32,000 bases of DNA, taken from positions 720,001-752,000 of the forward strand of contig CP060222.1 of NCBI GenBank assembly GCA_023898425.1, written 5' to 3'. The notes below the pieces were generated by a model that was not told the DNA's origin, did no database searches, and saw only the letters and a list, made by a program, of their open reading frames with translations. This stretch comes from Candidatus Saccharimonadota bacterium. GTDB lineage: Bacteria; Patescibacteriota; Patescibacteriia; 2-12-FULL-60-25. Below, piece after piece: positions 2,411-28,271 of the stretch; within the stretch, counting starts at the first letter, position 1, and each line of letters begins with the position of its first letter. Both the position numbers and the translations under genes were made by a program.

Positions 2411-3133
2411 TTATTTTGAGTATTCTGATCCTAACTGGATACGGTTCTTCACAACTTCATCTCCTACAACTAATCCATCCTTCATAGTGATGATACGCTC
2501 TGCGTATTGCGCCGTTGTTTTTTCGTGTGTCACAAGAATAATGGTATGACCGTGACGCATATTTAACTCAAGTAATGTATCCATCACAATTTTGCCTGAC
2601 TTCGAATCAAGGTTACCCGTAGGCTCATCAGCAAAGATGACCGCTGGCTTGCGAACGAGTGTGCGCGCAATTGCAACACGCTGACGCTCACCACCAGAAA
2701 GCTGGTTAGAAAGATTATTTGCACGGTGCTCAAGACCTACAAGCTTAATTGCCTCCATGGCTAACGCTGTACGGTCTTTTACTGGTACATCCGAATAGAG
2801 CAACGGCAACATTACGTTTTCAAGCACACTTGTCTTAGGTAAGAGATTAAATGCTTGAAAAATAAAGCCGACTCTTTCACCACGCACCACAGCCTGTTCG
2901 TCTTCATCAAAGGTGGAGATTTCTTCACCGTCAAAGTAGTACTTACCGGTTGTTAACGTGTCGAGAAAACCCAAGATATGCATGAAGGTTGATTTACCAG
3001 ATCCCGAAGGTCCCATAATGGCAACAAATTGCCCTTTTGGAACCTCAAGGTTTACACCATGCAATACCGGAGTTTTTGCACCATCCGTCTCGTAGGTCTT
3101 CGTGAGGTCTACGACCTTAATGAGAGCAGACAT
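2411..3133 (-). CDS. ABC transporter ATP-binding protein (MacB/LolD-type, stand-alone ATPase)
   Basis: 240-aa ORF with Walker A GPSGSGKST, ABC signature LSGGERQRVAIARTL, Walker B VIFADEPTGNLD and H-loop VTHE. Confidence 0.95.
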   Translation of the reverse strand: MSALIKVVDLTKTYETDGAKTPVLHGVNLEVPKGQFVAIMGPSGSGKSTFMHILGFLDTLTTGKYYFDGEEISTFDEDEQAVVRGERVGFIFQAFNLLPKTSVLENVMLPLLYSDVPVKDRTALAMEAIKLVGLEHRANNLSNQLSGGERQRVAIARTLVRKPAVIFADEPTGNLDSKSGKIVMDTLLELNMRHGHTIILVTHEKTTAQYAERIITMKDGLVVGDEVVKNRIQLGSEYSK

Positions 3134-3135
3134 AG

Positions 3136-5028
3136 TTATTTTTGTTCTTCGTTTTTATTCTCAAAACGCATGTCGTCCGCGAGGTTTTTATACTCTTCTG
3201 CTGTTACTTCGCGAAGCAAGATACGATCGCCGGCATTTAATCCGCTAAGAACCTCGCTCTTACCTTCGTCAGCGCGTAAACCGGTGACAACTTCTTTTTC
3301 ATTGATGGATGAGCCATCGATTACACGTGCCGTTTTCTTATTATTTGCATCACGTAACGAACGAGATGGAACAAAGAGTGCATCTGTACGTGAAGCTGTT
3401 GTGATAATCAAGTTTGCTGTCATACCTGGCTTTACATCTTTATCACCAATATCAATGGTAGCGTATACTTTGTAATAGATCGCATCTTGGACTTTTGTTT
3501 GATCAGCGTTCTCGCCAACAATTTTCCCTTTGAATTTTACGCTATCACCATAGGCATCAAGAGTGATTTCTACTTCTTGATTTACATCAACAATGGTCAC
3601 ATCAGATTCTGGGACAAGTGCTTCGATACCATAGCCTTCGGTGCTTACCATACGAATAACCGCAGCACTTTGATTGACGAGCTCGCCTGTTGTAGGAACA
3701 ACATCAGTAATAACACCATCCGCTGGAGCAATGATTTGTGCATCAGAAAGACGTTCAGATGCTTGCGCGTAGGCAGTTTGCGCATCTAATACCGCTGCAC
3801 GAAGACCAGCTACATCTACGGCACGAGGACCGGCAATACGCGCATCAAGATTTGCTTGAGCGGAGTTGAGAGCCGCTTGCTGAATCATGACATTTGTTTC
3901 AGCAGTCTTTACCTTATTGATACGATTACGATCTGCAATCGAAAGATTTGCTTCTGCTTGTTTAAATGCCGCTTCAAGTTGTGCTTTTGATGTTGTGATG
4001 GAATAGGTCGCTGAACGATACCCTTCTACAGCACCTGCTACTGAACCGAGCTGTGCACTTACTGCTGTACGCTGCCCATCAATACTAGAACGTTTAGCCG
4101 CCAAAGAAGCCTCGGTTAAATACGCGTTTGTGATGGAGGCGTTTAGCACACGCTGAACAGAATCAAGATATTCTTGTGTTTTTTCGATAGCATCTTGTGT
4201 TTTGTCACCAGTGGCTTCAAATACGCTTGGCGCATCAGTATCATTTAAGGACGCAATTGCCGATTCTGCTGACTTAAAAGCAATTTTTGCCGCTTCATAC
4301 TGATACTTGGCTGTTTCTTTTGATAATGAATCTGAAATACCTAAGACATTTTCATAATTGTCATTTGCTGCTGCATTATCAACACCAATAATTTCGTCAC
4401 CCGCAGAAAGACCTGAGCGCATGGTGCCGAGCGATGCTTTCATTGCACTCACAAGAGCAACTCTTGCAGAGATAACCGATTGGTCAGCTGTAGCACCTCC
4501 GCTCGTAATATCGGATGATGCTTTATCGTAAGAAATTTGCGCTAAACGAAATTCGTCCTCTACGCTTTGTTTTGTAAGGTTTAAATCAACAATAGACTTA
4601 TCATAGGATGCCTTTGCCTGATCTACTGACGCTTGTGCGATAGCAATAGACTCTTTTGTTTCTCCAGCAAGACGTGCATTAAGATTTGCCTCAGCGATCG
4701 CTAATGCAGCACGAGCACGCTCAGCACTAAAACGAAGGTCGCGTGATTCTAGCTCAGCGAGTAAATCGCCACGCTTTACCTTTTGACCAACTTTTACCGC
4801 AACACGGTTAAGCGTGCCTGAGCTCTTAAAACCCAAACTTAAACGCAAATCAGGCTTTACTTCTCCTGTCACTTCTACAGTGCGAACAAGGTTACCTTTT
4901 TCAGCTTTTGCCGTTTCGTAAAATACTGAATTTGACCCACCACGACCAAAGAAAAGCCAGCCAAAGAAAACGATGGCGAGTACAATATAGGTCCACTTGT
5001 TTTTCAACAGATTCTTCAAGAAATTCAT
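3136..5028 (-). CDS. HlyD/MacA-family membrane fusion (periplasmic adaptor) protein with a greatly extended coiled-coil hairpin
   Basis: 630-aa ORF. N-terminal TM WTYIVLAIVFFGWLFFG. Split lipoyl-like halves (GEVKPD...VKVGQKVKRGDLLAELE and AQIIAPADGVITDV). About 340 aa of Ala/Gln/Ser-rich helical sequence lies between them. C-terminal beta-barrel-like region. Sits directly upstream of the ABC ATPase. Confidence 0.85.
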   Translation of the reverse strand: MNFLKNLLKNKWTYIVLAIVFFGWLFFGRGGSNSVFYETAKAEKGNLVRTVEVTGEVKPDLRLSLGFKSSGTLNRVAVKVGQKVKRGDLLAELESRDLRFSAERARAALAIAEANLNARLAGETKESIAIAQASVDQAKASYDKSIVDLNLTKQSVEDEFRLAQISYDKASSDITSGGATADQSVISARVALVSAMKASLGTMRSGLSAGDEIIGVDNAAANDNYENVLGISDSLSKETAKYQYEAAKIAFKSAESAIASLNDTDAPSVFEATGDKTQDAIEKTQEYLDSVQRVLNASITNAYLTEASLAAKRSSIDGQRTAVSAQLGSVAGAVEGYRSATYSITTSKAQLEAAFKQAEANLSIADRNRINKVKTAETNVMIQQAALNSAQANLDARIAGPRAVDVAGLRAAVLDAQTAYAQASERLSDAQIIAPADGVITDVVPTTGELVNQSAAVIRMVSTEGYGIEALVPESDVTIVDVNQEVEITLDAYGDSVKFKGKIVGENADQTKVQDAIYYKVYATIDIGDKDVKPGMTANLIITTASRTDALFVPSRSLRDANNKKTARVIDGSSINEKEVVTGLRADEGKSEVLSGLNAGDRILLREVTAEEYKNLADDMRFENKNEEQK

Positions 5029-5037
5029 AGGGTTAGT

Positions 5038-5298
5038 TTACACGTTTTTTAGCGCTTGCGCGATACGGTCAGAAAAAGAAGCCACCATCTCTTGGAGCGA
5101 GGAGGCAGGCAAGATCACAAGAGGTCCGTCACCGTTTTGCATTAAGACAATACGATCACCTGACTTAAAGCCAAGCTTCTCTCTCATTTCTTTTGGGATA
5201 ACGATTTGTCCTCTTTCTCCCAAAACAGCTGCTCCAACGAGCGCATCCTTCGGGTTAAAGGGGCAAATATCCCCTTTCTTCGATGGTTTCTTTATCAT
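5038..5298 (-). CDS. AbrB/MazE/SpoVT-family DNA-binding protein
   Basis: 86-aa ORF containing the SpoVT-AbrB looped-hinge signature GQIVIPKEMREKLGFKSGDRIVL. First gene of the efflux operon, 9 nt upstream of the HlyD-like gene. Confidence 0.7.
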   Translation of the reverse strand: MIKKPSKKGDICPFNPKDALVGAAVLGERGQIVIPKEMREKLGFKSGDRIVLMQNGDGPLVILPASSLQEMVASFSDRIAQALKNV

Positions 5299-5312
5299 AA
5301 TTTAGTACGAAA

Positions 5313-5341
5313 AGTATGAATTAACATACTGGTTTTGTCAA
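5313..5341 (-). promoter_or_regulatory. Candidate sigma70-type promoter for the AbrB-like/efflux operon
   Basis: On the minus strand: TTGACA (plus 5336..5341), a 17-nt spacer, then CATACT (plus 5313..5318). It lies about 15 nt upstream of ATG 5298, implying a very short leader. Pattern match only. Confidence 0.35.
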
Positions 5342-5371
5342 GGGTAATGAATAACTTGACCAGGTCGATAA

Positions 5372-6409
5372 ATGCGCTATCTTTCGCCTATGTCTACGCC
5401 ACTTTTTGACTTTGATTATCACCTTCCTGTTGACCGTATTGCTCAAGAGTCGCTTGCAGACCGTGAGTCAGCAAAGCTACTCCTATTAGCTCGTGAAGAT
5501 GGCGCCATCATAGATCGTCATATTCGTGATCTGCCAGATCTGTTAGCACCAGGAGATCTATTGATTTTTAATGACAGCAAAGTCTTTAAGGCGCGCCTAG
5601 AAGGACGTCTCGACGACGGTACGCAAGCAGAGTGTTTTCTCCTCCATCCGACGGAGCACGGCTATTGGGAAGCCCTTATCAAGCCAGGTAAAAAACTCGC
5701 TCCTGGATCAACAATCTATTTTTCCTCTGACACAAAGTGCGTATTGCAAGAAAAAACCAACCAAGGTACCGCCATAGTTGATTTTGGCTTAACAACTGAT
5801 GAAGTATTCGCATTTTCTGATAAAGCAGGTTCGGTGCCAGTCCCGCCCTATGTTGAAAAAAATGCACGTAACCAGAGCGAGTACCAAACCATCTATGCCA
5901 AAGAACGCGGTTCAGTGGCAGCACCTACAGCAGGATTTCATTTTACTGAAAATCTCTTTAACAAACTTGAACAAAAAGGCGTTCAAAAAGCCTTTGTCAC
6001 TCTTCATGTAGGACTCGGTACATTTAGACCCATCAAAACAGAAACACTTGAAACGCATGACATGCACAGAGAGTGGGGCCATGTTCCTCAAGAAACGATT
6101 GATCAAATCTATAAAACAAAGAAACGCGGTAATCGCGTCATTGCTGTTGGTACTACGGCGACACGCGCTCTTGAGTCGTGGGGCGGCGTAGGAGAAGCTT
6201 GGGCTGATTCAACCGATCTCTTTATTACTCCGGGCTATTCGTTTCGAGTAATTGACGGATTGCTAACGAATTTTCATTTACCAAAATCTACGCTCATCGT
6301 ACTTGTTTCTGCCTTTGCAGGACGTAAGTCCGTATTAAATGCCTATAAACACGCCATTGATAATAAGTATCGTTTTTATAGCTTTGGTGATGCGATGCTT
6401 ATCCTTTAG
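5372..6409 (+). CDS. queA: S-adenosylmethionine:tRNA ribosyltransferase-isomerase (queuosine biosynthesis)
   Basis: 345-aa ORF with QueA hallmarks: N-terminal FDFDYHLP..RIAQ, GSVAAPTAGFHFT, HVGLGTFRPI, AVGTTATRALES, TNFHLPKSTLIVLVSAF and YRFYSFGDAMLI. The second ATG at 5390 (MSTPLFDFDY) fits typical QueA N-termini better, so the start is uncertain. Confidence 0.93.
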   Translation: MRYLSPMSTPLFDFDYHLPVDRIAQESLADRESAKLLLLAREDGAIIDRHIRDLPDLLAPGDLLIFNDSKVFKARLEGRLDDGTQAECFLLHPTEHGYWEALIKPGKKLAPGSTIYFSSDTKCVLQEKTNQGTAIVDFGLTTDEVFAFSDKAGSVPVPPYVEKNARNQSEYQTIYAKERGSVAAPTAGFHFTENLFNKLEQKGVQKAFVTLHVGLGTFRPIKTETLETHDMHREWGHVPQETIDQIYKTKKRGNRVIAVGTTATRALESWGGVGEAWADSTDLFITPGYSFRVIDGLLTNFHLPKSTLIVLVSAFAGRKSVLNAYKHAIDNKYRFYSFGDAMLIL

Positions 6410-7541
6410 GCTTTACAAGCAGCAACCCATCCTCAGGAGGGACGCTTACTTCGTTTAGAATTTCTCCCGTATTGATTTGCGGATCTTGTCGTCCAAAAAG
6501 TTTTTGATATCTCGTTGGCAATTGTATGGTGATCGCTTTTTTTGTTGGGTTTACAATAACGTAACCATTTGTAAATTGACGTGACCAAAGTCCCGAACTG
6601 TTTTTAGGCGCTGAATTTGGTACACCAATCGGTGCTTCGTATTCGTCATACCACCAGGTGCGATGATGTTTTGCATCTCCCGCATCAAACGAATAGTAGC
6701 CACCCGCTATGAGCGTTGAAGCTAATCCATAACGCATCAAACGATAATCATTTGGACGCTCTAGATTATTTGTATTGGTATTGATCGCTAATACGTTTGG
6801 CTGCTCTAATAGCGGAGATATATCTTGCATTGAACGAAAGGGCCAATCAAACCCATAACGTGGAAAATTTTCAAATAAAATACCGTTCGTTTCTTGCGCA
6901 AATTCTAATGAACTATTGGCAATAATAATCCGATCATCTCCTATGGCTTTGCGGGTATTTTGTAAAAGCGTTTTCATCCCATCACGATAAGCCTCATCAA
7001 CGGTTTTAGGGTCATCAACTATACCATCATTATTTATATCTAATCCTGCACCAAACTTAGATGTGACCTCACTATACCCGCCATCTAAAAAGACACCGTC
7101 CCAAATACCCTTAGACATGAGTTCTTGATGAATATATCTCGGTAAAAACGTATTCCAACGCTCGCCATTTATCAGCGGTGCACCATTTGTTGCGTTCATG
7201 AGCCATGCGCCTGGCCACCAACTAATCCTGCTTTGGCTTGGACGACCCAAGAACCATTGTTCCGGAATTTGATCTGCAAGATTTCTACCCGGCGAACCTA
7301 AGCTGCCATGAAAACGCGCTTCACTAATCTCACCAGCACTAATATAAGCGATAAGCTTTATGTCTGGATTTAACCGTTTTATCAACTTCATCTGCTCAGG
7401 AAATTGATACGTCTGATCCATGTCTAATACGACAATATCCCAACGCGATAACATGGTGGCTGTCTCATCCGTAAGTTCATACCCTAAGAAAAAATTTATG
7501 AGTGGCGGTGTCTCAATATCATCCGTTGAAGCAACCGCCAT
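6399..7541 (-). CDS. Putative glycoside hydrolase-like TIM-barrel protein (GH114 / GHL-type, exopolysaccharide hydrolase-like)
   Basis: 380-aa ORF with motifs I associate with GH114-like TIM barrels: WDIVVLDMD, LIAYISAGEI, WWPGAWLMN and WDGVFLDGGY. The family call is from memory of motifs, not a search. No signal peptide in this frame (see 7496..7615). Confidence 0.5.
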   Translation of the reverse strand: MAVASTDDIETPPLINFFLGYELTDETATMLSRWDIVVLDMDQTYQFPEQMKLIKRLNPDIKLIAYISAGEISEARFHGSLGSPGRNLADQIPEQWFLGRPSQSRISWWPGAWLMNATNGAPLINGERWNTFLPRYIHQELMSKGIWDGVFLDGGYSEVTSKFGAGLDINNDGIVDDPKTVDEAYRDGMKTLLQNTRKAIGDDRIIIANSSLEFAQETNGILFENFPRYGFDWPFRSMQDISPLLEQPNVLAINTNTNNLERPNDYRLMRYGLASTLIAGGYYSFDAGDAKHHRTWWYDEYEAPIGVPNSAPKNSSGLWSRQFTNGYVIVNPTKKAITIQLPTRYQKLFGRQDPQINTGEILNEVSVPPEDGLLLVKPKG

Positions 7542-11370: not shown

Positions 11371-11943
11371 ATGCAAACAAGCCCCTATCACCTCCTACCA
11401 AAAGTATTAGACATCATCGATTGCCTACAACCGAAACGTATTTTAGATATTGGTTGCGGCGATGGTTTTGTTGGGCTTGCTATCCATCGTTATATCGACC
11501 AATCTATCCGATTAGATGGAATTGATAAAACAGCTACGAAGTCACCCTTATTATCAAGCGACTATCAGCTTTTTACAAAAATAGATTTTCGCTCTCTAGA
11601 GGCTAAGGATCTCCCGCACTATGATCTCGTTCTCTTGCTTGAGACACTTCAATCAGTCAATAAACGCGAAGGCAAAAAACTCTTAACGCAACTCCTTCAA
11701 CAAAATAATAGCTTGCTTATTAGTGTTGATCGAAGCCAGTGGGACAAAGGGGATTTTGCTGAGCTGAGTAATGCGTTATTTCTATTTGATAGTGAACGCA
11801 CCCTCGTTTTTTTAACAAAAGACCCTGAAAAAATAAAACAATTAAGAAAAAATAGAATTACCTCAAAATTATTACGCGGTATTGGTAGTTCAAAAACAGC
11901 TACTCGTATTATAAAACGTGTTACCAAAACAAAATCAAAGTAA
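11371..11943 (+). CDS. Class I SAM-dependent methyltransferase
   Basis: 190-aa ORF with SAM-binding motif I ILDIGCGDGFVG, followed by an acidic residue after beta2 (LDGID). Lys-rich C-terminal tail. Confidence 0.65.
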   Translation: MQTSPYHLLPKVLDIIDCLQPKRILDIGCGDGFVGLAIHRYIDQSIRLDGIDKTATKSPLLSSDYQLFTKIDFRSLEAKDLPHYDLVLLLETLQSVNKREGKKLLTQLLQQNNSLLISVDRSQWDKGDFAELSNALFLFDSERTLVFLTKDPEKIKQLRKNRITSKLLRGIGSSKTATRIIKRVTKTKSK

Positions 11944-11954
11944 GATACGAAAAA

Positions 11955-11981
11955 GCCCCTCTTGAAGTTCAAGAAGGGCTC
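11955..11981. terminator. Bidirectional rho-independent terminator between convergent genes
   Basis: AGCCCCTCTTGAA-G-TTCAAGAAGGGCT, a 13-nt inverted repeat with one mismatch. It is preceded by AAAAA (a TTTTT tail for the minus-strand transcript) and followed by CATTTCAGTTT on the plus strand. Confidence 0.6.
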
Positions 11982-12023
11982 ATTTCAGTTTGCGCTAGAA
12001 GCGCTCAAGGACACCGCGCTTGA

Positions 12024-14939
12024 TCAGAGCGCGCCGTTGCGGCAGACACCCGAAGATGTCGTACCCGTGATCGGCGAACCATTGCCAGCGGTGATCGACG
12101 CGTAGTCGCTATACCCGGAGGTAGAGGCGACACACGTACCACCGTAGTTATGCGCCATGTGGACGATGTAGACCGTCCCGTTGACGTTGACGCAACTGCG
12201 GATCGTCCAAGGAACACCCGTAGGCACTCCAGAGCACGAAACCACGGTATTGCCACCGCTCACAGCACACGAAGAGCCGGGCACCACACTCAGAGTGGTC
12301 GCATCGACGACCGTGGGCTGTGCCGTACACGGAACACCGTTGGTGTCGCTGCCCGTGAGGACAAAGACACGCGTGGCATTGCTCGTATTGAGCGTTGCAC
12401 TGACCGTGGTCGTCCCAGAAGGACAACCCTCGTTCACCACACCGCTGCAGTTGTTGTCGAGCAAGTCACCGCAGACCTCAGTTGCACCGGGATTGACCGA
12501 TGCATTGGAGGGACTGCAGTCGTTGTTGTTCGACACCTGACCAGACGGACAAACCGCGCCCGAGACGACGTTGACCGCGCCTGCACCGTAACCATCGTTG
12601 TCGGTGTCGGCGTAGCAATTGGTCGTCACGCAGCCTTCGTTCACCAGGGCATCGCAGTCGTTGTCGACCTGATCACCGCAGAGCTCAGCCGCGTTGGGGT
12701 GGGTGGTCGGCGCTGCATCGTTGCAGTCGCCATTGGCCGACGAGGTACCCGCGGGACACATGGCTGCGCTGTACACGAAGCCCGCTCCCACACCGTAGCC
12801 ATCTGCGTCAGCGTCCGTGTAGCACGTGACACTCACACAAGACAGGTTCTCGTTGACCATGCCGTCGCAGTCGTTGTCGATCATGTCGCAGACCTCCAAC
12901 TGGAGGGGGTTCTGTGACGCATTGGCGTCGTTGCAGTCCGAGTTGTTCGTCACGCGACCAGCGGGGCAGGAACCGTAGACCTGGAGGGCCGTACCGGTAC
13001 CGAAGCCGTCGTTGTCGGCGTCGACGAAGCAACTCGTGATGATGCAGCCATCATCCACGATCGTATTGCAGTTCTGATCGATGGCATCGCCACAGACCTC
13101 GACCGCATTGGGGTGGATGGTATTGACGTTGTTGTTGCAGTCACCTGCAACCGTCACCTGTCCTGCGGGGCACGCCAGAGCCGCGAGGCTATTGGGTGCA
13201 CCGGCGCCATAGCCATCACCATCGGTGTCGGCGTAGCACGTGATCACCTCGCACGAGAGACCGTCGTCGATCGTGAGATCGCAGTCGTCGTCGATGAGAT
13301 TGCACATCTCAATTGCGCCGGGGTGAATTGTGTCGTCACCGTCGTCGCAGTCGTCGTCGAGACCAACCTGACCATCGGGACAGACCGCGGGAGCCGCAGC
13401 CGTACCATTGATCGGGTTTGCCACACCAGCGCCGTGACCATCACCGTCCGCGTCGACGTAGCAGAACACCATATTGCAGGTGAGTCCGTCGTCGGCCACG
13501 AGCGTGCAGTCGTCGTCGATCGTATTGCAGATCTCTATGGCACCGGGGAAGACCGCAGAAGAAGCGTCGTTGCAGTCACCGAAGATCGCCGAAGTACCCG
13601 AGGGGCACTGCGTCGTATTCGGCATGACCATACCGACACCGCTACCGAAGCCGTCCATGTCACCATCCGTGTAGCAGGTCGTCGCCATGCAAACGAGCAT
13701 GTCGTCGATCGTACCGTCACAGTTGTCGTCGAAGCCGTTGCAGATCTCGGTGGCACCGGGATGGATCTGGTCGTTCGCGTCGTTGCACTCACCGCCGAGC
13801 TTTACCTCGCCAGCAAGACACGTCGTACCGATACGAACCACGCCCACACCCGTACCGAACCCGTCACCATCGGCGTCAGGGAAGCAGCGGACAGACTCGC
13901 AGGTGTTGCCACCATCGATCATTCCGTCGCAGTTGTCGTCGATGAGGTTGCAGATCTCGGTGGCACCAGGGTGCACAGCGGGATCGTTGGGAGCGCAGTC
14001 GTTGGGGACCGCGGACTCACCAGCGTTACAGCTGGTACCAAGGCGGGTCACGGGCAAGCCGTAACCGAAGCCATCGTCGTCGACATCCTCGTAGCAGTCG
14101 ATCGACTCGCAGCTCAGACCTTCGTTGATCTGACCGTCGCAGTCGTTGTCGATGCCCGTGGGCAAGTCACAGATCTCGGGGGCACCCGGAAAGGTGCTCG
14201 AGACCGTATCATCGCAGTCGCCAGGGACCGTCGCCATACCAGCGCCGCAAGCGGCACCGTTATTGGCGAGGACACCGTCACCCGTTCCGAACCCGTCACC
14301 ATCCGCATCGACGTAGCACGTCTGCTGAGAGCAGATGAGCGCGCCGCTTGGGGTGCTGTCGGGCGTACCGTCGCAGTCGTCGTCGAGACCGTTGCAGGTC
14401 TCGGCTTGCGGGGCCAGCGGGGTCGCGTTGCAGAACAACGTGGCCGTAGGCTTGTCGCAAGTGAAGGTGCCCGCTTGGGTACATTCACCGACTCCGTTGG
14501 TACAGGGCTCACCCATCACGCCGACGTTCGAGACGACACACCCAAGGGGGATGTCGGTTTGCACGCAGATCGTGTAGACACCCGGCGACAGCTGATACTG
14601 CCAGCCAAGGGGGCCACCGGGGCCACCGATCGTGCAGAAGCGACCATCGGTGGAGTTCACGCCGCCATCGGGATTCGACGGGACGGGAGCCACGCAGGTG
14701 CACTCGGTCCACGTGTTGTTGGCCGGGTCGCAGTACTGCGTCGCCTGGGGGCTGTAGCCCGGAGGGCAAGTGTTGGGGCAATAGTTGATGTCGCCCGGCT
14801 GATTGCCGGTCGAATCACAGGTGCCGGTGAGGGCAGCATGCGAATCCGAGGCATCGAACGGGCTGGCACAGCCAGCCTGAACGAGGACGAGCCCCAAGGT
14901 TGCCATCATGGCGACCTTGAGAAGGTTGAAATTTCTCAT
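12024..14939 (-). CDS. Secreted lipoprotein, Cys/Asp-rich, nine tandem MopE-like putative metal/calcium-binding modules; GC-rich compositional outlier
   Basis: 971-aa ORF. N-terminus MRNFNLLKVAMMATLGLVLVQAG|C is a lipoprotein signal with Cys24. Strong SD (AAGGAGAG) ends 3 nt before the ATG. Nine repeats of C[YF]xDxDxDG[FYH]GxG...C..G......DC.D......P.A.E.C......D..C. About 60% GC against low-40s in flanking genes (hand counts of single 60-nt lines: 37/60, 30/60 and 40/60 inside; 25/60 in a flanking gene). Confidence 0.9.
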   Translation of the reverse strand: MRNFNLLKVAMMATLGLVLVQAGCASPFDASDSHAALTGTCDSTGNQPGDINYCPNTCPPGYSPQATQYCDPANNTWTECTCVAPVPSNPDGGVNSTDGRFCTIGGPGGPLGWQYQLSPGVYTICVQTDIPLGCVVSNVGVMGEPCTNGVGECTQAGTFTCDKPTATLFCNATPLAPQAETCNGLDDDCDGTPDSTPSGALICSQQTCYVDADGDGFGTGDGVLANNGAACGAGMATVPGDCDDTVSSTFPGAPEICDLPTGIDNDCDGQINEGLSCESIDCYEDVDDDGFGYGLPVTRLGTSCNAGESAVPNDCAPNDPAVHPGATEICNLIDDNCDGMIDGGNTCESVRCFPDADGDGFGTGVGVVRIGTTCLAGEVKLGGECNDANDQIHPGATEICNGFDDNCDGTIDDMLVCMATTCYTDGDMDGFGSGVGMVMPNTTQCPSGTSAIFGDCNDASSAVFPGAIEICNTIDDDCTLVADDGLTCNMVFCYVDADGDGHGAGVANPINGTAAAPAVCPDGQVGLDDDCDDGDDTIHPGAIEMCNLIDDDCDLTIDDGLSCEVITCYADTDGDGYGAGAPNSLAALACPAGQVTVAGDCNNNVNTIHPNAVEVCGDAIDQNCNTIVDDGCIITSCFVDADNDGFGTGTALQVYGSCPAGRVTNNSDCNDANASQNPLQLEVCDMIDNDCDGMVNENLSCVSVTCYTDADADGYGVGAGFVYSAAMCPAGTSSANGDCNDAAPTTHPNAAELCGDQVDNDCDALVNEGCVTTNCYADTDNDGYGAGAVNVVSGAVCPSGQVSNNNDCSPSNASVNPGATEVCGDLLDNNCSGVVNEGCPSGTTTVSATLNTSNATRVFVLTGSDTNGVPCTAQPTVVDATTLSVVPGSSCAVSGGNTVVSCSGVPTGVPWTIRSCVNVNGTVYIVHMAHNYGGTCVASTSGYSDYASITAGNGSPITGTTSSGVCRNGAL
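12423..14318 (-). repeat. Nine tandem coding repeats of ~195-225 nt (65-75 aa modules, aa 208-839 of the lipoprotein)
   Basis: Module boundaries on the minus strand: 14318-14097, 14096-13887, 13886-13677, 13676-13464, 13463-13239, 13238-13032, 13031-12825, 12824-12618 and 12617-12423. Each starts with a Cys codon followed by Y/F-x-D-x-D-x-D-G. Six Cys per module. Modules are diverged; I estimate about half identical at protein level for similar pairs. Confidence 0.85.
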
Positions 14940-15050
14940 TTTCTCTCCTTGCGTATTTGATTACCCGGCACGCATCCGGGGTAGATAACTGATTGTAGGG
15001 TCCAATTAATGCAGCCGGGTTCTTATCCCAGAGATACATCAAGCTCAGCT

Positions 15051-15079
15051 TAACTATCATATTTATAAATAAATGTCAA
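15051..15079 (-). promoter_or_regulatory. Candidate sigma70-type promoter for the GC-rich lipoprotein gene
   Basis: On the minus strand: TTGACA (plus 15074..15079), a 17-nt AT-rich spacer ending in TGA, then TAGTTA (plus 15051..15056). It sits in a ~22% GC intergenic region and would give a ~100-nt 5' UTR. Pattern match only. Confidence 0.4.
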
Positions 15080-15215
15080 TCGTCTATAGGACAAAAATAT
15101 CCTTATTCATATAATTCTGACTCTTTGAAAGACGTATTTGTAAAATAATGGCTAATATTAGCGCTATTTACTATTTAATGTAGAAAAATCCTGGGATAAT
15201 AGTTTTTCTATTCTG

Positions 15216-15977
15216 CTATCTTTTCGGTATCATTACTGCCTGTGACCAAACTAACTCAAAAACGGTTCTCATCATTTGTGTAAGAGCTGGCGAATAAATA
15301 ACGAGCACAGCGGGTTCTTTACCATGGGTAAAAAGATACGATTTTTGACCTGTGATCGCGAGTCCACCAGAAAAAGGAGCCTGATCAACATAACAAGCTC
15401 TTACATCGAATCTATTTGCATCAAAACTCGGTAAAGCACTCCCTCTTGGTGTCACAAGAACCGTACGACCATGTTGTAGACGCATTTGTCGATCGCGTTT
15501 ATCACTCGCGGCTTCGATAATTCGATGAAAATACTCATCAATAACAAACCATTCCAAAAGCGCATCTTGGCTCATGGCGATCTCATCACGTAAACGCAAG
15601 ATCTCGCTCATACCTTCGAAATACTGCACATGCGGCTTACCTTGACCGTCTTGAAAAGCAGCGAGCAATTCTTTCATCGAATCATTAAGGCGTTGCATGC
15701 GATATCGCATTGTCTCTAAATCTCCTGCGAGATTTTCTCTTAATCGTTCTGGAGAACGTGCGGTAAATACCGCTCTCCCTGCTTGCTCGCCTTCGATGAC
15801 AAGACCTTTTTCTATCAATGACTCTAAGGCTGGATAGGTAGCCGTGCGATTTACGTGACTTTTTTCTGCGATCTCTTGCACGGAACTTGTACCGAGTATT
15901 AACAACGTTAAATAAATATCACTTTCGCGCTGTGTAAAGCCGCAATCTTTGAGCAGCGGTCGAATATGATCAAACAT
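15216..15977 (-). CDS. TrmB-family transcriptional regulator (N-terminal winged HTH plus C-terminal effector-like domain)
   Basis: 253-aa ORF. N-terminus GFTQRESDIYLTLLILGTSSVQEIAEKSHVNRTATYPALESLIEKGLV matches the TrmB HTH pattern. Confidence 0.75.
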   Translation of the reverse strand: MFDHIRPLLKDCGFTQRESDIYLTLLILGTSSVQEIAEKSHVNRTATYPALESLIEKGLVIEGEQAGRAVFTARSPERLRENLAGDLETMRYRMQRLNDSMKELLAAFQDGQGKPHVQYFEGMSEILRLRDEIAMSQDALLEWFVIDEYFHRIIEAASDKRDRQMRLQHGRTVLVTPRGSALPSFDANRFDVRACYVDQAPFSGGLAITGQKSYLFTHGKEPAVLVIYSPALTQMMRTVFELVWSQAVMIPKR

Positions 15978-17123: not shown

Positions 17124-18128
17124 TTAGGAAGAGAAGACGCTACGTTTATAGAGATCGAGATTTTCGAGTGCGATGCCTGTGCCTTTTGCCACGCATTGCT
17201 GTGGGTTATCAGCCATAAAGGCAGGAACGCCGGTTGCTTCTGAAAAAAGACGATCTAAATTTCGTAATTGTGACGAACCTCCAGAGAGGACCATACCCTT
17301 TTGCATCACATCTGCCGAAAGCTCAGGAGGCGTGTTGCGTAAAACGTCTTTGATGGCATCAACGATTCCAGCGAGCTCATGTTGAATCGCGTCCGTTACA
17401 TCATCAGAGGTCACGGTGATGACACGCGGCAAACCATTGATCATATCGCGACCCTTTACTTCGAGCTCTAGTTTTTCTTCGAGATAGAGTGCTGAACCGA
17501 TACGGATTTTAATTTCTTCTGATGTACGCTCACCAATAGCGAGACCGTATTTACGACGAACATGTTCTTGAATAGCACCATCCAATTTATTGCCACCAAT
17601 ACGAACAGAAGAAGAAGCCACAATGCCACCCAAAGAAATAACAGCGATCTCAGAAGTGCCGCCGCCGATATCAATAATCATGTGTCCAGATGCTGAGCCA
17701 ATTGGAATATCAGCACCAATAGCAGCAACAACAGGTTCTTTGATAATGTAAGCCGCTCTAGCACCAGCACTAATCGTGGCATCGATAACCGCACGACGTT
17801 CGGTAGAAGTGATACCACCCGGAACAGCAACCATTACCTCTGGACGAAACAAACGCACGCCTCCGAGCGCCTTATTAATAAAGTAACGTAGCATCGCCTC
17901 CGTGGTGCGGTAGTCAGCGATAACACCGTCTTTAAGTGGACGTTTTGCCACGATGGTGTCTGGAGTACGGCCAATCATGTCTTTTGCTTCTTTGCCTACG
18001 GCGAGTACTTTTTTATCTGCTAACGAAATCGCAACAACTGAAGGTTCGTTAATAATGATCCCTTTTTTTGGGATGTAGACGAGTACGGTCGTGGTGCCTA
18101 GATCGATACCAATTTTTTTTCCGAACAT
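17124..18128 (-). CDS. mreB: Rod shape-determining actin homologue MreB
   Basis: 334-aa ORF. IGIDLGTTTVLVY phosphate-1 motif, MIIDIGGGTSEIAVISLGGIV, and GMVLSGGSSQLRNLDRL. Confidence 0.93.
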   Translation of the reverse strand: MFGKKIGIDLGTTTVLVYIPKKGIIINEPSVVAISLADKKVLAVGKEAKDMIGRTPDTIVAKRPLKDGVIADYRTTEAMLRYFINKALGGVRLFRPEVMVAVPGGITSTERRAVIDATISAGARAAYIIKEPVVAAIGADIPIGSASGHMIIDIGGGTSEIAVISLGGIVASSSVRIGGNKLDGAIQEHVRRKYGLAIGERTSEEIKIRIGSALYLEEKLELEVKGRDMINGLPRVITVTSDDVTDAIQHELAGIVDAIKDVLRNTPPELSADVMQKGMVLSGGSSQLRNLDRLFSEATGVPAFMADNPQQCVAKGTGIALENLDLYKRSVFSS

Positions 18129-18130
18129 AG

Positions 18131-20107
18131 CTAGAAGGTAATATGAAAATCACGAGTCAGATCCCAAAACTTGGTATAACGGTAGTAGAGATCTCCCCAC
18201 TCCACGCGGTCTTCAGGAGGAACCGCGTCTTTAATGTTCTTACCGAATGAGAGATCTAGCGTCAATTCACGCTTAGCTCCTGGTTGTTTTTGGGCCAAAA
18301 GCACATATTCACCCTTTTGTACCTGAGACAAGATACGTGGCGGTAATTTATAGGTAAATGAGATTGTATTACGAGATGCGAGATCAACGGACCAGTGACA
18401 GCCAAAAACCTGCTTACCTAATTCTTTATACACATCCGGTCGACAGCCGGTTGCGGTAATAAATTCTGAACCCTCAGGCACATAGACCCTGGTATAACTA
18501 CGATACCTTGTATAACGCCAATCCGCGGTTTGTGCATTATTTCGATATTGAAGTTTTGTTGTTGCTATAAGATCACCGTTAGCATCTTCGTTAATACTAT
18601 AGAGCACTTCTTTATCAACAACACCATCCGTTTTTTGCGCATTAATATTTGCATCAACAACCCAGAGATAGTCGTTATCTGTTGCAAGCGTTCTCCCCGC
18701 CCAGCCACGTCGATCAAGCACCTCTTGTGTGGACTTATCTTTTACAGCAACGATCATATCTCCCTGATTAAGCGACTGAGTCACCACAGTTAACAGTGTA
18801 GGCCAAGAAGATGCCGGCAAGGTCATAAGACGCTGAATAAGCGCATCCCCTACTTGTTTTACGATCTCTTTGCGTTGTGCGACGGGCTTACCTTCAAATA
18901 AAAAGCCTTGGTCAACATCAAATTGCAACTTATCAAAAAAGTTTGCCTCATCAAATACACGACCCTCAACGGTGATAGGACCCGTTAAACGCAAGAAGCC
19001 CTTAAAAATTTCTGGTGTTAAGAAAATAACACCGTCAACATGAACATTTTTATTTCGACCTAAGGCATTTTCGCGAACATAAAAGTCCATAATTGTTGCC
19101 GCAGAAGAAGGCGCATCAGGGGACCAGTTTGCATCACGTAGATAGAAAACTTTGTTTAAAAATTGTCCTGCTAGACCGATTGGTTGTGGCTCGTTCCATT
19201 TGCCATCAACAGATTGATCGAGAGCGTACACATCCTCGAATTCAAAAGATTCAAGATGACCCGCATCAACCGTAACAACGCCAATATTTCCGATAAAGCC
19301 ACCTGTTGGACGTAACTCGTCACTATTTTGCAATAAAACTAGATAGGTTTTTTGTTCTGGAACGCCGGATAGCGGTACGAGCCACTCAAGAACATCAACA
19401 GCATTTTTTAATGCTGTATCAGCTTCGGCCAGCCGATTTGCATAAGGAGCGATGACTTCTCGCACTGGTAATAACAATTCTTCTTGTGGGATTTGTGACC
19501 ATGTATTTGAAGCAATAGCAATACGTTCTCGCGCTAAACGTAATTTTGGCAATAACTCGTAGAGCTTTGCCATAATCGCCTTTCGCTCATCACTTGTAAG
19601 ATCTTGATACGAACGATTACTACCAATCACTTGCCCAGGGAGCGCGGCTTCGTTTAATGCCTCATTTATCTCTCGAGCCACTTGAACAAGTTCGCGTGCT
19701 CCGGCGATAGCGGATCCGCCTACACGACTAACAGACTCAAGCGACTGAATACGAGTACCGATCCAAGGTGCATAGCGCCAAGCGCCAAAGGCCTTAAAAC
19801 CTTTTTGCACATCCGCCAAACCAGCTTCGGCAATAAGAAGATCTTCGTCAGCACCGGCAAAATCAAGACTCGCGACGCGCTCTGGTAAACGCTTTAGTGC
19901 ACTCCTAGCCGTAAGCGCACCAGTACTAGCAAGTGCCGAACCATAAAGAACAGGTAAAATAAACACCACAACAAGAAGCGTTACGAAAAGTGCAACGGGC
20001 CATCCCATGCCTTTAAGCCATGACGGCCACTTTGTCGGTTTTTTATTTAACGAAGCATCTGTATGCGATGTTACTTCGTGTAGTAGATTTGGAGACTCAT
20101 GCGACAT
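18131..20107 (-). CDS. DUF4012 domain-containing membrane-anchored protein
   Basis: 658-aa ORF. N-terminal TM WPVALFVTLLVVVFILPVLY. The LLQNSDELRPTGGFIGNIG motif is the one I recall as the DUF4012 hallmark. Stop is 2 nt before the mreB start. Confidence 0.7.
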   Translation of the reverse strand: MSHESPNLLHEVTSHTDASLNKKPTKWPSWLKGMGWPVALFVTLLVVVFILPVLYGSALASTGALTARSALKRLPERVASLDFAGADEDLLIAEAGLADVQKGFKAFGAWRYAPWIGTRIQSLESVSRVGGSAIAGARELVQVAREINEALNEAALPGQVIGSNRSYQDLTSDERKAIMAKLYELLPKLRLARERIAIASNTWSQIPQEELLLPVREVIAPYANRLAEADTALKNAVDVLEWLVPLSGVPEQKTYLVLLQNSDELRPTGGFIGNIGVVTVDAGHLESFEFEDVYALDQSVDGKWNEPQPIGLAGQFLNKVFYLRDANWSPDAPSSAATIMDFYVRENALGRNKNVHVDGVIFLTPEIFKGFLRLTGPITVEGRVFDEANFFDKLQFDVDQGFLFEGKPVAQRKEIVKQVGDALIQRLMTLPASSWPTLLTVVTQSLNQGDMIVAVKDKSTQEVLDRRGWAGRTLATDNDYLWVVDANINAQKTDGVVDKEVLYSINEDANGDLIATTKLQYRNNAQTADWRYTRYRSYTRVYVPEGSEFITATGCRPDVYKELGKQVFGCHWSVDLASRNTISFTYKLPPRILSQVQKGEYVLLAQKQPGAKRELTLDLSFGKNIKDAVPPEDRVEWGDLYYRYTKFWDLTRDFHITF

Positions 20108-27174: not shown

Positions 27175-27564
27175 TTATTTAAGCGTAGCTTGACCGCCAG
27201 CTTCTTCAATCTTCTTTTTGATTTCTTCAGCTTCTGCTTTAGGAGCGTTTTCTTTTACAGCTTTTGGAGCTGCGTCAACGATATCCTTCGCTTCTTTGAG
27301 GCCGAGACCGGTCAATTCGCGAACGACTTTGATAACAGCAATCTTGTTGCTGCCAGCATTTGTCAATTCAACCGTGAAGGAGGATTGCTCTTCAGCGGCA
27401 GACGCTGGACCAGCTGCCATCATGACAGGAGCCGCAGCGGATACGCCGAATTTATCTTCGAGGAGGCTAACGAGCTCAGCAAGCTCGATAACAGTAAGTT
27501 TTTCGATCGCAGCGACTAAGTCCGTGAACTTTGCTGGGATCTCAACGTTCTTCATTTCCGACAT
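27175..27564 (-). CDS. rplL: 50S ribosomal protein L7/L12
   Basis: 129-aa ORF. N-terminal dimerisation region, Ala/Pro hinge, and C-terminal [21 protein letters not shown]...[19 protein letters not shown]. Confidence 0.95.
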
Positions 27565-27590
27565 AGGAATGTAAGTAAGATCTAAAGGGA

Positions 27591-28271
27591 TTATTCGGCT
27601 GCTGGAGCTTCTGGAGCTGGTTCAGCAGGTGCCTCAGGGGCGACTTCGACTGGAGCTTCGGCTGGAGCGGCTTCAGGTGCTGCTTCTGGAGCAGTTTCTG
27701 GAGCGACTTCAGCTGCAGGAGCTTCAGTAGCAGGTTCAGCAGGAGCTTCAGCAACCGGAGCGGCTGGAGCAGGAGCTGGGGAACCTTTTTCCTGTTCTTC
27801 CTTATAGGCGTTAAGCAAGCGCACGAAGGCACCAGCTGGACCATTGAGGACAGAAAGGAGTTGGCCGAGGAGTTGCGAACGGCTTGGGAGCTTGGAAAGC
27901 GTGGTGACGTATTCCTTGTCAACGATTTGGCCATCAAAGATACCACCTACCAATTTGATAGTCGTATCTTTACTAGCTTCACCGGTGAGCTTTGCTGGAG
28001 CCATTTCGTCCTCAGTGCCGATGGCGGCACCGATCATACCCGGAAAGGATTTGAAGTCGACGTCAAAACCAGCCTCTTTTGCTGCTACAGTGAGCAACGT
28101 TTTCTTAGCAACAACGTAACGAACACCTTCGGTAAACATCTTCTTACGAAGATCGGTGATGCTCGAAACAGTCATGCCTTGAAAATCAGAGAAGGCGACG
28201 GACTTTGCTTCCTTAAGGGCGGACGCAAGAGCGGCAACTTCCTCGTTCTTTTGAGAACGGGATTTTGGCAT
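27591..28271 (-). CDS. rplJ: 50S ribosomal protein L10 with a 63-aa Pro/Ala/Glu-rich C-terminal extension
   Basis: 226-aa ORF. L10 core ([36 protein letters not shown]...[24 protein letters not shown]), then [63 protein letters not shown]. Confidence 0.93.

Follow-up and report, generated by a model that had tools for sequence, protein, structure and literature searches.

A resident GC-rich MopE-repeat gene in an AT-leaning Saccharimonadota genome: a probable recombining surface cassette under sustained AT-to-GC fixation bias

Introduction

The established picture of horizontally acquired segments is that of genomic islands undergoing amelioration (the Lawrence–Ochman model), and GC-biased gene conversion at recombination hot spots is likewise an established concept. 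The locus described here raises the question of how a single gene may come to hold, and to keep, a composition that looks foreign to its genome. Within the window (the whole stretch of 32,000 nucleotides of a Candidatus Saccharimonadota contig that was analysed), a coding sequence for a MopE-repeat surface protein of 971 aa (12024..14939, minus strand) forms a GC-rich island on its own. The first-pass annotation, made from the window alone, had left three explanations side by side, namely recent acquisition from a high-GC donor, a native gene of extreme composition and an assembly chimera. The reading favoured here, to which a probability of roughly 60 % is given, is that of a long-resident, recombining surface cassette whose GC-rich composition has persisted under a sustained AT-to-GC fixation bias. 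The comparison covers five lineages, represented by metagenomic contigs with inconsistent taxonomic labels: W (the window with L004, L005 and L121), L001/L025, L002, L009 and L132.

A sharp compositional step at one gene

The jump in composition at the MopE gene is confirmed, and it is a sharp one. Measured in 500-nt windows, GC is 0.60–0.64 across positions 12001–15000 and 0.36–0.53 in the rest of the window, and the gene itself has a GC of 0.615 (GC1 0.577, GC2 0.525, GC3 0.744), while the GC3 of the 25 other window ORFs ranges from 0.298 to 0.416. When GC3 is predicted from the amino acids that this protein uses and the codon preferences of flanking genes, 0.348 is expected against the 0.744 observed (z = 26.9), and |z| does not exceed 2.4 for any other gene of the window. 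The raw 4-mer distance of the gene is 0.73 (versus 0.15–0.25), and its composition-normalised tetranucleotides correlate with those elsewhere in the window at 0.28 (versus 0.74–0.87). The sliding-window GC, GC3, tetranucleotide and codon-usage checks proposed in the first-pass annotation thus all single out this gene, upholding its view of one gene much richer in GC than its surroundings, with an excess at synonymous positions, to which the minus-strand orientation is now added. The compositional edges are no more than about 40 nt away from the start and stop codons; the first approximately eight codons are AT-rich and host-like, GC is moderate in the UTRs (0.47 and 0.52), and it is 0.26 in the untranscribed upstream region.

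Architecture of the protein and of its locus

The protein begins with what reads as a lipoprotein-type signal peptide extending to Cys24 (14868..14939, minus strand). This Cys is kept in all five lineages, while the lipobox is degenerate, the −3 position being Q, W, L, P or V across lineages and, by sequence reading, fitting [LVI][ASTVI][GAS]C in only some of them. There follow, on the same strand, a clade-specific, Cys-rich N-terminal domain (aa 25–179, 14403..14867, GC3 ~0.80), a repeat array of one half-module and nine modules of 69–75 aa each (aa 180–838, 12426..14402), and a clade-specific C-terminal domain (aa 839–971, 12027..12425), which is also present in P0130, P0131 and P0132. Every module consists of a DxDxDG loop and a MopE Cys motif, and the array yields ten matches to the Pfam family PF11617 (Cu-binding_MopE; 269.8 bits, E = 6.7e-82, above the gathering score of 27 bits). 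The motif aligns to residues 12–44 of 2VOV, the PDB entry for MopE of Methylococcus capsulatus, and a Foldseek search returned no match for the protein. Copper binding, which is known for MopE, would be putative at most for the present protein. The Cys/Asp pattern of the modules (DxDxDG and Cys columns) is invariant and compatible with Ca2+ and disulfide modules, and, to judge from this pattern and a dN/dS of 0.07–0.29, the gene is functional. Surface exposure, and with it a surface or adhesin role, is suggested by the signal peptide with its Cys and by the envelope-gene context (GT4, Wzy_C, GT2, DUF4012, MreB). The protein shares ten motif matches and the 2VOV alignment with the 'putative metal-binding motif' proteins of Myxococcota and other phyla, from which it differs in its clade-restricted terminal domains and in that the Bacteroidota homologues are host-like in composition.

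The gene is set between two anchors of host-like or low GC3. Upstream lies the gene of a TrmB-family HTH regulator (15216..15977, minus strand; host-like composition, GC3 0.35), with the perfect palindrome GCTAATATTAGC (15151..15162) just downstream of its stop codon; this palindrome occurs once in the window, is kept in four of the five lineages and is a candidate operator. It is followed by a conserved promoter-like block (15051..15079, minus strand) composed of TTGACA, 17 nt with TG, and TAGTTA, the −35 box of which is identical in all five lineages; a simple consensus scan missed the block because the −10 element is weak. The leader opens with a 5'-terminal stem-loop (15006..15043, minus strand), conserved in every lineage as a helix of two tiers that shows compensatory changes and carries an invariant AUAAGAA loop (GGGATAAGAACCC at 15017–15029), and continues with a second hairpin (ACCCCGG...CCGGGT; 14963..14982, minus strand), conserved in position and differing in sequence by lineage. 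The Shine–Dalgarno sequence AAGGAGAG (14943..14950, minus strand) and the hairpin terminator (11953..11981) had both been recognised in the first-pass annotation; the terminator is common to the MopE gene and the convergent downstream anchor, a SAM-methyltransferase-like gene (11371..11943, plus strand; GC3 0.30).

A long-standing resident of a small clade

The order TrmB–MopE behind the conserved promoter and leader is found in five of five lineages, and the terminator and methyltransferase gene follow in the four with contigs long enough to include the 3' end, the L132 contig stopping inside the MopE gene. Between lineages, flank proteins are 55–98 % identical and MopE proteins 36–76 %, and synonymous sites are largely saturated. 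The clade appears to be small, since only six TrmB clusters were retrieved at E ≤ 1e-20 among 5.8 billion proteins. Homologues of the repeats number in the thousands (~35–44 % identity), and no full-length homologue was found outside the clade. Beyond Patescibacteria, the closest homologue matches over the repeats alone, at ~40 % identity. No occurrence of the N- and C-terminal domains was found beyond this Patescibacteria clade and a few relatives, the C-terminal domain having only a handful of relatives among 1.8 billion representative proteins.

A chimera, in which assembly would have fused a high-GC fragment with a low-GC contig, can be dismissed: although several assemblies break near the MopE gene into short contigs of 3–4.4 kb, three other assemblies of the same species, with flanks ~99–100 % identical to the window, reproduce both junctions (L004, L005) or the 5' one (L121), a protein of 100 % identity is encoded on a contig of 1.03 Mb, four diverged lineages have their GC step at this locus too, and the gene joins its signal peptide, Shine–Dalgarno sequence, leader and terminator without a break.

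An overlapping antisense gene that constrains the third codon positions of the MopE gene is very unlikely. The frames noted earlier as nearly stop-free on both strands include a 615-aa 'shadow' ORF (13113..14960, plus strand), which stays open in every lineage (522 aa in L009, more than 450 aa in L132). However, stops in this frame can arise only from sense TTA, CTA or TCA, which occur 0, 0 and 1 times, yet A-ending codons are avoided across all codon families (35 of 972 codons). Four-fold sites are, moreover, nearly saturated between orthologues, which leaves no specific antisense sequence conserved. The ORF is a by-product of the avoidance of A-ending codons and not a gene, and its equivalent in L132 was mis-annotated by a gene caller.

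Recent acquisition by this genome from a high-GC donor, such as a member of the Myxococcota or the host of an episymbiont, is equally improbable. The codon usage and tetranucleotide signature are strongly foreign-looking, and the MopE repeat family is abundant in Myxococcota; the link to that phylum drawn in the first-pass annotation holds at the level of the repeat family (PF11617) and no closer. Such transfer is refuted by conserved synteny, for the gene occupies the same TrmB-flanked locus, behind the same promoter and leader, in five diverged lineages with largely saturated synonymous sites, which the annotation itself had named as evidence against transfer, and the outside homologues reach only ~40 % over the repeats. 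Genomic islands are resembled in that GC3, codon usage and oligonucleotide signature are atypical in a discrete segment. Unlike such islands, the locus shows neither patchy presence nor a close donor homologue, its synteny is conserved in all relatives found, and its composition has not converged on that of the host despite saturated synonymous sites. Mobility signatures are also absent, in agreement, for integrase, transposase and direct repeats, with the earlier reading: no tRNA gene or flanking direct repeats were found around the gene, and none of the 28 window ORFs scanned, some short ones of which had no match at all, gave an integrase or transposase Pfam match.

Exchange of alleles at the locus

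Within the species, comparison of the window with L004 gives a dS of 0.30 in the N- and C-terminal domains, whereas repeats and flanks give 0.008 and 0.009, respectively, the swap at the C-terminus covering the distal ~60 aa (dS 0.30). Exchange extends to diverged lineages. The MopE proteins of L132 and L009 share 59 % identity, and synonymous sites in their genes are unsaturated (residual 0.38), whereas their TrmB proteins are 55 % identical with synonymous sites that appear saturated (residual 0.06, over only 30 sites), and the L132 allele looks recently imported. W and L001 carry one allele class, whereas the flanks of L001 group with those of L002 and L009, and in the matrix of TrmB against MopE identities the distribution of allele classes conflicts with the relationships of the flanking genes. 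Because allele classes disagree with flanking genes and terminal domains are swapped within the species, the MopE gene is a recombining cassette, resident and syntenic, with a probable role at the cell surface. Of the three explanations first considered, that of a native gene of extreme composition comes closest to the evidence, but it is incomplete for a recombining cassette whose alleles move between lineages.

The nearest known parallel is provided by the rfb and capsule cassettes of Enterobacteria (PMC3715488), in which a surface-structure locus lies between conserved flanking genes, deeply diverged alleles pass between lineages by recombination in the flanks, and GC is persistently atypical; in Salmonella enterica, the O-antigen clusters have a GC of 28–37 % versus 51–52 % for the genome, an oddity usually put down to unidentified foreign donors (PMC3715488). 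The present locus likewise has conserved anchors on both sides and deep allele classes discordant with the flanks. It differs in that the sign is reversed (GC-rich in an AT-leaning genome), in that the cassette is a single protein-coding gene and not a multi-gene sugar pathway, and in that the excess is quantified at synonymous sites in five lineages and tested against passive decay.

Persistence of the GC bias

The bias persists in every related lineage found. Four-fold GC in gene and flank, respectively, is 0.709 and 0.349 in W, 0.812 and 0.500 in L001/L025, 0.889 and 0.636 in L002, 0.788 and 0.545 in L009, and 0.886 and 0.428 in L132, corresponding to logit offsets of 1.51, 1.46, 1.52, 1.13 and 2.33, the flank samples of L009 (66 four-fold sites) and L132 (partial gene) being small. 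The offset varies, at 2.33 in L132 versus ~1.5 in other lineages; split by base, it is 1.2–2.3 for C against T and 1.2–2.3 for G against A. A-ending codons make up 2–5 % of four-fold codons in the MopE genes of all lineages, compared with 12–27 % in the flanks.

Two candidate causes were rejected. The amino-acid composition or repeat family is discounted by host-like relatives: the MopE genes of two Bacteroidota genomes have a GC3 of 0.25–0.28, not above most of their neighbours (0.19–0.37, with one outlier at 0.51), and the paralogue P0130, at another locus in the genome of L002, has an offset of 0.10 ± 0.17. Conversion among repeats is excluded by modules that are 34–51 % identical to one another and positionally orthologous between lineages.

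Ordinary translational selection, by which a very highly expressed gene would have adopted host-optimal codons, is improbable. High expression is suggested by the consensus −35 box, strong Shine–Dalgarno sequence, 5' stem-loop and strong terminator, and in two-fold NNY codons C is preferred to T (0.74) much as in L7/L12 (0.73, n = 11). This is the only likeness to ribosomal-protein codon preference. L10, L7/L12 and MreB favour codons that end in T or A, with avoidance of a final G; in the ribosomal-protein genes and MreB, four-fold G3 is 0.07–0.12, T exceeds C, and the G-ending fraction of Lys/Glu/Gln codons is 0.24–0.31, compared with a G3 of 0.29, an excess of C over T and a fraction of 0.88 in the MopE gene. 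The GC3 of L10 is only 0.405. If the cause were selection linked to the folding or export of the protein, the paralogue and the Bacteroidota MopE genes should show the bias as well, and they do not; the excess mRNA folding of MopE genes is also seen in unrelated GC-rich genes.

GC-biased conversion, on the other hand, is resembled in that the AT-to-GC shift affects all synonymous classes (C over T, G over A) in a gene with more recombination than the genes next to it. Tract-based conversion predicts that GC should spill over into adjacent gene ends, but the quarters abutting the cassette are AT-rich (GC3 0.30 for TrmB and 0.15 for the methyltransferase), and the effect is very large (logit 1.1–2.3) and confined to the gene.

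A further possibility, which we consider doubtful yet worth serious attention, is that of a passive relic in a mobile allele pool, in which unseen high-GC members of the clade, to which the cassette would be native or which would have acquired it, would supply alleles that introgress into lower-GC relatives through the conserved flanks and then undergo ordinary amelioration, no gene-specific force being required. For a passive relic with a donor GC4 of up to 1.0, a residual identity of 0.30–0.43 at four-fold sites is needed, whereas the family-specific residual identity is 0.05–0.15 (one pair at −0.14; upper 95 % limits 0.04–0.22); synonymous turnover is thus too high for such a relic, unless an unseen high-GC reservoir supplies alleles. 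This test presupposes that the past hosts of each allele resembled the present one and is weakened because alleles are mobile between lineages: on re-calculation, with alleles residing mostly in hosts with a four-fold GC of at least 0.64, some pairs fit passive decay. Exchange between lineages is demonstrated, L132 combines an allele among the most GC-rich with a background among the lowest in GC, the allele being recent by comparison with its flanks, and the shift of W relative to L002 is mostly C-to-T, resembling partial amelioration. Furthermore, gene callers may miss orthologues through the antisense ORF, so that protein databases could fail to show such a reservoir. Against this, no lineage was found with an orthologue matching its background, the highest flank four-fold GC being 0.64 where the gene has 0.89; the clade is small by its six TrmB clusters; the pairs L002–L009 and L001–L002 remain below the required residual identity even at a background of 0.64; and A-ending four-fold codons stay rare in all lineages.

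Conclusions

The MopE gene is a long-standing resident cassette of a small Patescibacteria clade, set between the TrmB-like regulator, promoter and leader upstream and the shared terminator and methyltransferase gene downstream. Homologous recombination exchanges deep allele classes between lineages and terminal domains within a species, as may be expected of a protein that is exposed at the surface or serves attachment. The GC-rich synonymous composition travels with the cassette in every lineage and, under the favoured reading, is most likely kept there by a sustained AT-to-GC fixation bias acting on the MopE gene, in the form of either synonymous-site selection or biased conversion linked to recombination; the MopE modules themselves would probably be of ancient foreign origin, with the bias superimposed. 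We infer that the bias is actively maintained. A stricter version, in which the gene has kept a private compositional equilibrium throughout the history of the clade, with four-fold GC log-odds ~1.5 (up to 2.3) above the genome and against both the mutational bias and the codon optimum of the host, is given even odds; the force would then be limited to the gene, as selection on synonymous sites for some property at the nucleic-acid level or as extremely local biased conversion tied to cassette exchange.

If this is true, the locus would offer a clean natural system in which a foreign-looking composition is an adaptation or a footprint of recombination and not the mark of recent transfer.

Composition of the MopE gene

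The MopE gene forms a real and striking compositional island. The GC-rich single-gene island described in the first-pass annotation is confirmed by a 500-nt profile, in which GC is 0.60–0.64 at window positions 12001–15000 and 0.36–0.53 in the remainder of the window, and by the GC3 values of individual genes. The ORF at 12024..14939 (minus strand) has a GC content of 0.615 (GC1 0.577, GC2 0.525), and its excess lies mostly at synonymous positions, since its GC3 is 0.744 versus 0.298–0.416 in the 25 other ORFs of the window. The excess stands when amino acid composition is controlled for: the GC3 expected from the amino acids of the protein itself and the codon preferences of the flanking genes is 0.348 (z = 26.9), and |z| is at most 2.4 for every other gene in the window. 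The tetranucleotide signature of the gene is also an outlier in the window.

GC3 is high throughout the gene, with values of 0.71 in the signal peptide, 0.80 in the N-terminal domain, 0.75 in the repeats and 0.68 in the C-terminal domain, and the step in composition is located no more than approximately 40 nt from the start and stop codons. The UTRs are moderate in GC (0.47 and 0.52), the untranscribed upstream DNA has a GC content of 0.26, and GC3 in the abutting quarters of the neighbouring genes is 0.30 for the TrmB-like regulator (15216..15977, minus strand) and 0.15 for the methyltransferase-like gene (11371..11943, plus strand). The latter quarter (11800–11943) is extremely AT-rich and codes for a basic, Lys/Arg/Thr-rich tail of the methyltransferase-like protein (...RIIKRVTKTKSK) that is kept in all lineages. 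The Shine-Dalgarno sequence and shared terminator match their earlier description. The window also lacks tRNA genes and, in agreement with the first-pass annotation, the island is not flanked by direct repeats and a scan of 28 ORFs gave no match to integrase or transposase families.

The encoded protein and its neighbourhood

The 971-aa protein contains ten matches to PF11617 (Cu-binding_MopE, 'putative metal-binding motif'; 269.8 bits in total; Pfam), the sole relative of solved structure being the motif of Methylococcus MopE (PDB 2VOV). Reading of the sequence suggests a signal peptide ending at Cys24, a Cys-rich N-terminal domain (aa 25–179), an array of one half-module and nine modules of 69–75 aa, each of which combines a DxDxDG loop with a Cys motif, and a C-terminal domain of approximately 133 aa. 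AlphaFold2 pLDDT is 70–90 for the repeats and below 50 for the N- and C-terminal domains. A Foldseek search against the PDB returned no meaningful match, NCBIfam holds no family for the protein, and no publication on MopE proteins from Patescibacteria emerged from a literature search. The databases contain a 100% identical protein, assigned to a 'Candidatus Nomurabacteria' MAG and encoded on a contig of 1.03 Mb. The best homologues outside the clade come from many phyla; their match is confined to the repeat region, at approximately 40% identity. In a set of 1.8 billion representative proteins, very few are related to the C-terminal domain. When the 154-aa N-terminal domain is used as query, a word-indexed search returns no hit and misses even P0001, a database entry with 100% identity, so that a null result is uninformative for short Cys-rich queries of this kind.

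The gene lies next to envelope genes encoding GT4 and GT2 glycosyltransferases, Wzy_C, DUF4012, MreB and GHL15 proteins, with the TrmB-family regulator upstream and the methyltransferase-like gene converging from downstream. Two of these neighbours differ in architecture from their counterparts in the related contig L002: the DUF4012 protein has 658 aa in the window (18131–20107) and is split there into two called genes of 277 and 400 aa (3457–5432), and the GHL15 protein has 380 aa in the window (6399–7541) versus a 664-aa GHL15 and FG-GAP protein (17388–19382).

Conservation of the locus

Three separate assemblies of the same species (L004, L005 and L121) carry flanking genes that are approximately 99–100% identical in nucleotide sequence to the window, and near-identical MopE proteins occur in further assemblies. 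An assembly chimera, one of the three explanations first offered, is refuted, as both junctions are reproduced in L004 and L005 and the 5' junction in L121. Another of them, recent horizontal acquisition, is refuted as well, because orthologues share the slot in four further lineages and the upstream DNA is conserved in all five. The MopE protein of the L001/L025 lineage, in the same slot, is 76% identical to that of the window; L002, a 212-kb contig, retains full synteny (TrmB-MopE-MTase-Wzy-GT4-GT4) and is 56–58% identical; L009 (36%) has fewer repeats and the same terminal domains; and L132 is 38% identical, its TrmB being 57% identical to that of the window. Between lineages, flanking proteins are 55–98% identical. 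A contig scan for TrmB, with two narrow N-terminal peptides as queries, recovered the L002 contig alone, while a DNA-motif scan of metagenomes returned 120 loci, of which 3 were true.

In L132, the automatic gene call is an antisense shadow ORF (2773–4131, minus strand, 452 aa), the true MopE gene starting at 2749 on the plus strand. In the long antisense frame, stops can arise only from sense TTA, CTA and TCA, of which the MopE gene of the window has 0, 0 and 1; the long antisense ORFs are thus an arithmetic consequence of the avoidance of A-ending codons. Owing to such miscalls, orthologues of these GC-rich genes can be absent from protein databases.

The expression signals are conserved as well. 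A promoter block (TTGACA-N17(TG)-TAnnnA) is kept upstream of the MopE gene in all five lineages, and is followed by a conserved mRNA leader of approximately 105 nt with two hairpins (15006–15043 and 14963–14982, minus strand). The 5'-terminal two-tier stem-loop, in which paired positions change in a compensatory manner and the AUAAGAA loop is invariant, and the second hairpin are each found in five of five lineages. Rfam holds no family for this leader, which might stabilise the mRNA through its 5' hairpin or act as a clade-specific regulatory RNA element. Directly after the TrmB-like stop codon lies a perfect 12-nt palindrome, GCTAATATTAGC (15151–15162), which is unique in the window, occurs in four of the five lineages (including the upstream regions of L001, L002, L009 and L025) and is absent in L132; it may be an operator of the adjacent TrmB-family regulator.

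Exchange of alleles and domains

Between the window and L004, the N-terminal domain and the distal part of the C-terminal domain each differ at a dS of 0.30, compared with 0.008 for the repeat core and 0.009 for eight flanking genes, and dN/dS is 0.07–0.29. The diverged blocks lie at 12034–12198 and 14463–14868, and divergence reaches slightly into the leader (14983–14992) and the 3' half of the methyltransferase-like gene. This pattern indicates that the terminal domains have been swapped within one species by domain-wise allelic replacement through recombination. Among lineages, the MopE proteins of L132 and L009 share 59% identity, and the synonymous sites of their genes are not saturated (residual identity 0.38 [0.25–0.50]); their TrmB proteins are 55% identical with sites that appear saturated, as judged from only 30 sites. 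The window lineage and L001 share the same MopE allele class (76%); the TrmB and methyltransferase of L001 group with those of L002 and L009.

The closest known pattern is that of O-antigen and capsule cassettes, which resemble the MopE cassette in their conserved anchors, in deep alleles exchanged through flank recombination and in persistently atypical GC. Salmonella O-antigen cassettes have 28–37% GC compared with 51–52% for the genome (PMC3715488). In the MopE cassette, however, the GC difference has the opposite sign and concerns a single gene. The signal peptide with its cysteine, the envelope-gene context and the cassette-type variation, together with the strong conserved promoter, leader and Shine-Dalgarno sequence, suggest that the product is likely abundant and variable and serves at the surface or in attachment.

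The GC excess across lineages

The excess was expressed as a logit offset, the log-odds of GC at four-fold sites in the gene minus that in its own flanks. Four-fold GC in gene and flanks is 0.709 and 0.349 in the window lineage (offset 1.51 ± 0.10), 0.812 and 0.500 in L001/L025 (1.46 ± 0.14), 0.889 and 0.636 in L002 (1.52 ± 0.14), 0.788 and 0.545 in L009 (1.13 ± 0.27), and 0.886 and 0.428 in L132 (2.33 ± 0.22). The shift affects both C-over-T and G-over-A, and A-ending four-fold codons make up 2–5% in the MopE genes of all lineages versus 12–27% in the flanks. A strictly constant offset as an equilibrium signature had to be scaled down, given that it applies to the three well-sampled lineages (1.46–1.52), roughly to L009 and not to L132.

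Possible causes of the excess

Several simple causes are rejected. The protein family does not force the composition, because MopE-repeat genes in two Bacteroidota genomes (GC3 0.25–0.28; neighbours mostly 0.19–0.37, with one outlier of 0.51) and a paralogue in the genome of L002, P0130, are host-like. P0130 (contig L130, 8001–9002) has 333 aa with an N-terminal hydrophobic segment and three MopE modules, and lies at an unrelated locus, preceded by a separate TTGACA promoter. The C-terminal domain of P0130 is of the MopE gene's type, being 60–61% identical to the window and L001 alleles versus 47% to the main MopE gene in the genome of L002, and the third-position spectrum of P0130 is host-like (offset 0.10 ± 0.17). 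The same contig carries a 542-aa gene (12976–14604) with a GC3 of 0.895 versus a background of approximately 0.58 and a faint Transposase_20 (IS110-like) match, which is plausibly mobile.

Repeat-driven concerted evolution or conversion is rejected since the modules are old, diverged (34–51% identical to one another) and positionally orthologous across lineages. Host-optimal codon use is likewise rejected, as the MopE preferences are opposite to those of L10, L7/L12 and MreB, in which T-ending four-fold codons are favoured, G-ending ones avoided and A-ending Lys, Glu and Gln codons favoured. The stretches 27175–28271 and 29281–29652 contain the ribosomal L10-L7/L12 operon, which is strongly T-ending at four-fold sites and served as the highly expressed reference, and, near it, a Phage_holin_4_2 family gene. 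With regard to selection for mRNA structure, MopE genes fold more stably than their synonymous-codon shuffles (z = −4.5 to −8.5), a signal that is not specific, because unrelated GC-rich genes do so too (IS110-like transposase, z = −4.7; NDH2, −2.5).

Were the excess left over from a donor (four-fold GC at most 1.0) and decaying passively towards the present flanks, orthologues would need to share a residual four-fold identity of at least 0.30–0.43, a requirement that site-rate variation would, by Jensen's inequality, raise further. With codon-family-specific expectations, the residual identity is 0.15 for the window and L001, 0.11 for the window and L002 and 0.13 for L001 and L002; pairs with L009 (N- and C-terminal domains only) give 0.05, 0.07 and −0.14. 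The upper 95% limits are 0.04–0.22, and the flanks of the window and L002 give 0.09. As these values fall below the requirement of passive decay, active maintenance of the excess is favoured. If a constant background four-fold GC of 0.64 is assumed, a re-calculation lets some pairs fit passive decay, but not L002–L009 or L001–L002. Polarising within-species differences by the L001 and L002 outgroups was dropped, since these are saturated and GC-rich, and the apparent GC-to-AT excess (approximately 20 versus 6) is for that reason the chance expectation.

The conclusion of maintenance is tempered by the offset not being strictly constant (2.33 in L132) and by the movement of alleles between lineages, so that the past hosts of an allele may differ from its present one. 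The main rival, which we consider less likely, is that lower-GC relatives receive their alleles from a high-GC reservoir as yet unseen. We favour, with a probability of approximately 0.55–0.6, a sustained AT-to-GC fixation bias limited to the MopE cassette. Such a bias could arise from selection on synonymous sites, which would fit the sharp boundaries, or from recombination-linked biased conversion, which would fit the recombination and the symmetric shift, although the AT-rich gene ends abutting the cassette do not fit the latter.

Implications

The MopE gene has resided for long at one locus, with conserved expression signals and under purifying selection, while its alleles and domains have been exchanged and its GC offset extends to all synonymous site classes in five of five lineages. 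Of the explanations first offered, a native gene of extreme composition comes nearest; in refined form, the gene is a surface cassette that recombines and whose codon usage stays GC-rich. It is plausible that the MopE modules derive from an ancient foreign source.

It is routine to take unusual GC and codon usage as evidence of recent transfer, or else as a sign of mis-assembly or mis-binning in metagenome-assembled genomes. This textbook-looking island is neither, being a conserved locus at which synonymous sites are saturated across lineages and the offset is retained, and it mirrors an old question, namely why GC remains atypical in the cassettes for O-antigen and capsule. Gene callers may choose the antisense shadow ORF of such genes and so hide orthologues, which constitutes an annotation hazard. 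As a one-gene system, the cassette could allow population data to separate selection, biased conversion and reservoir introgression. In an uncultured group of Patescibacteria, the findings also highlight a protein that is probably major and variable and acts at the surface or in attachment, together with its conserved regulatory leader.
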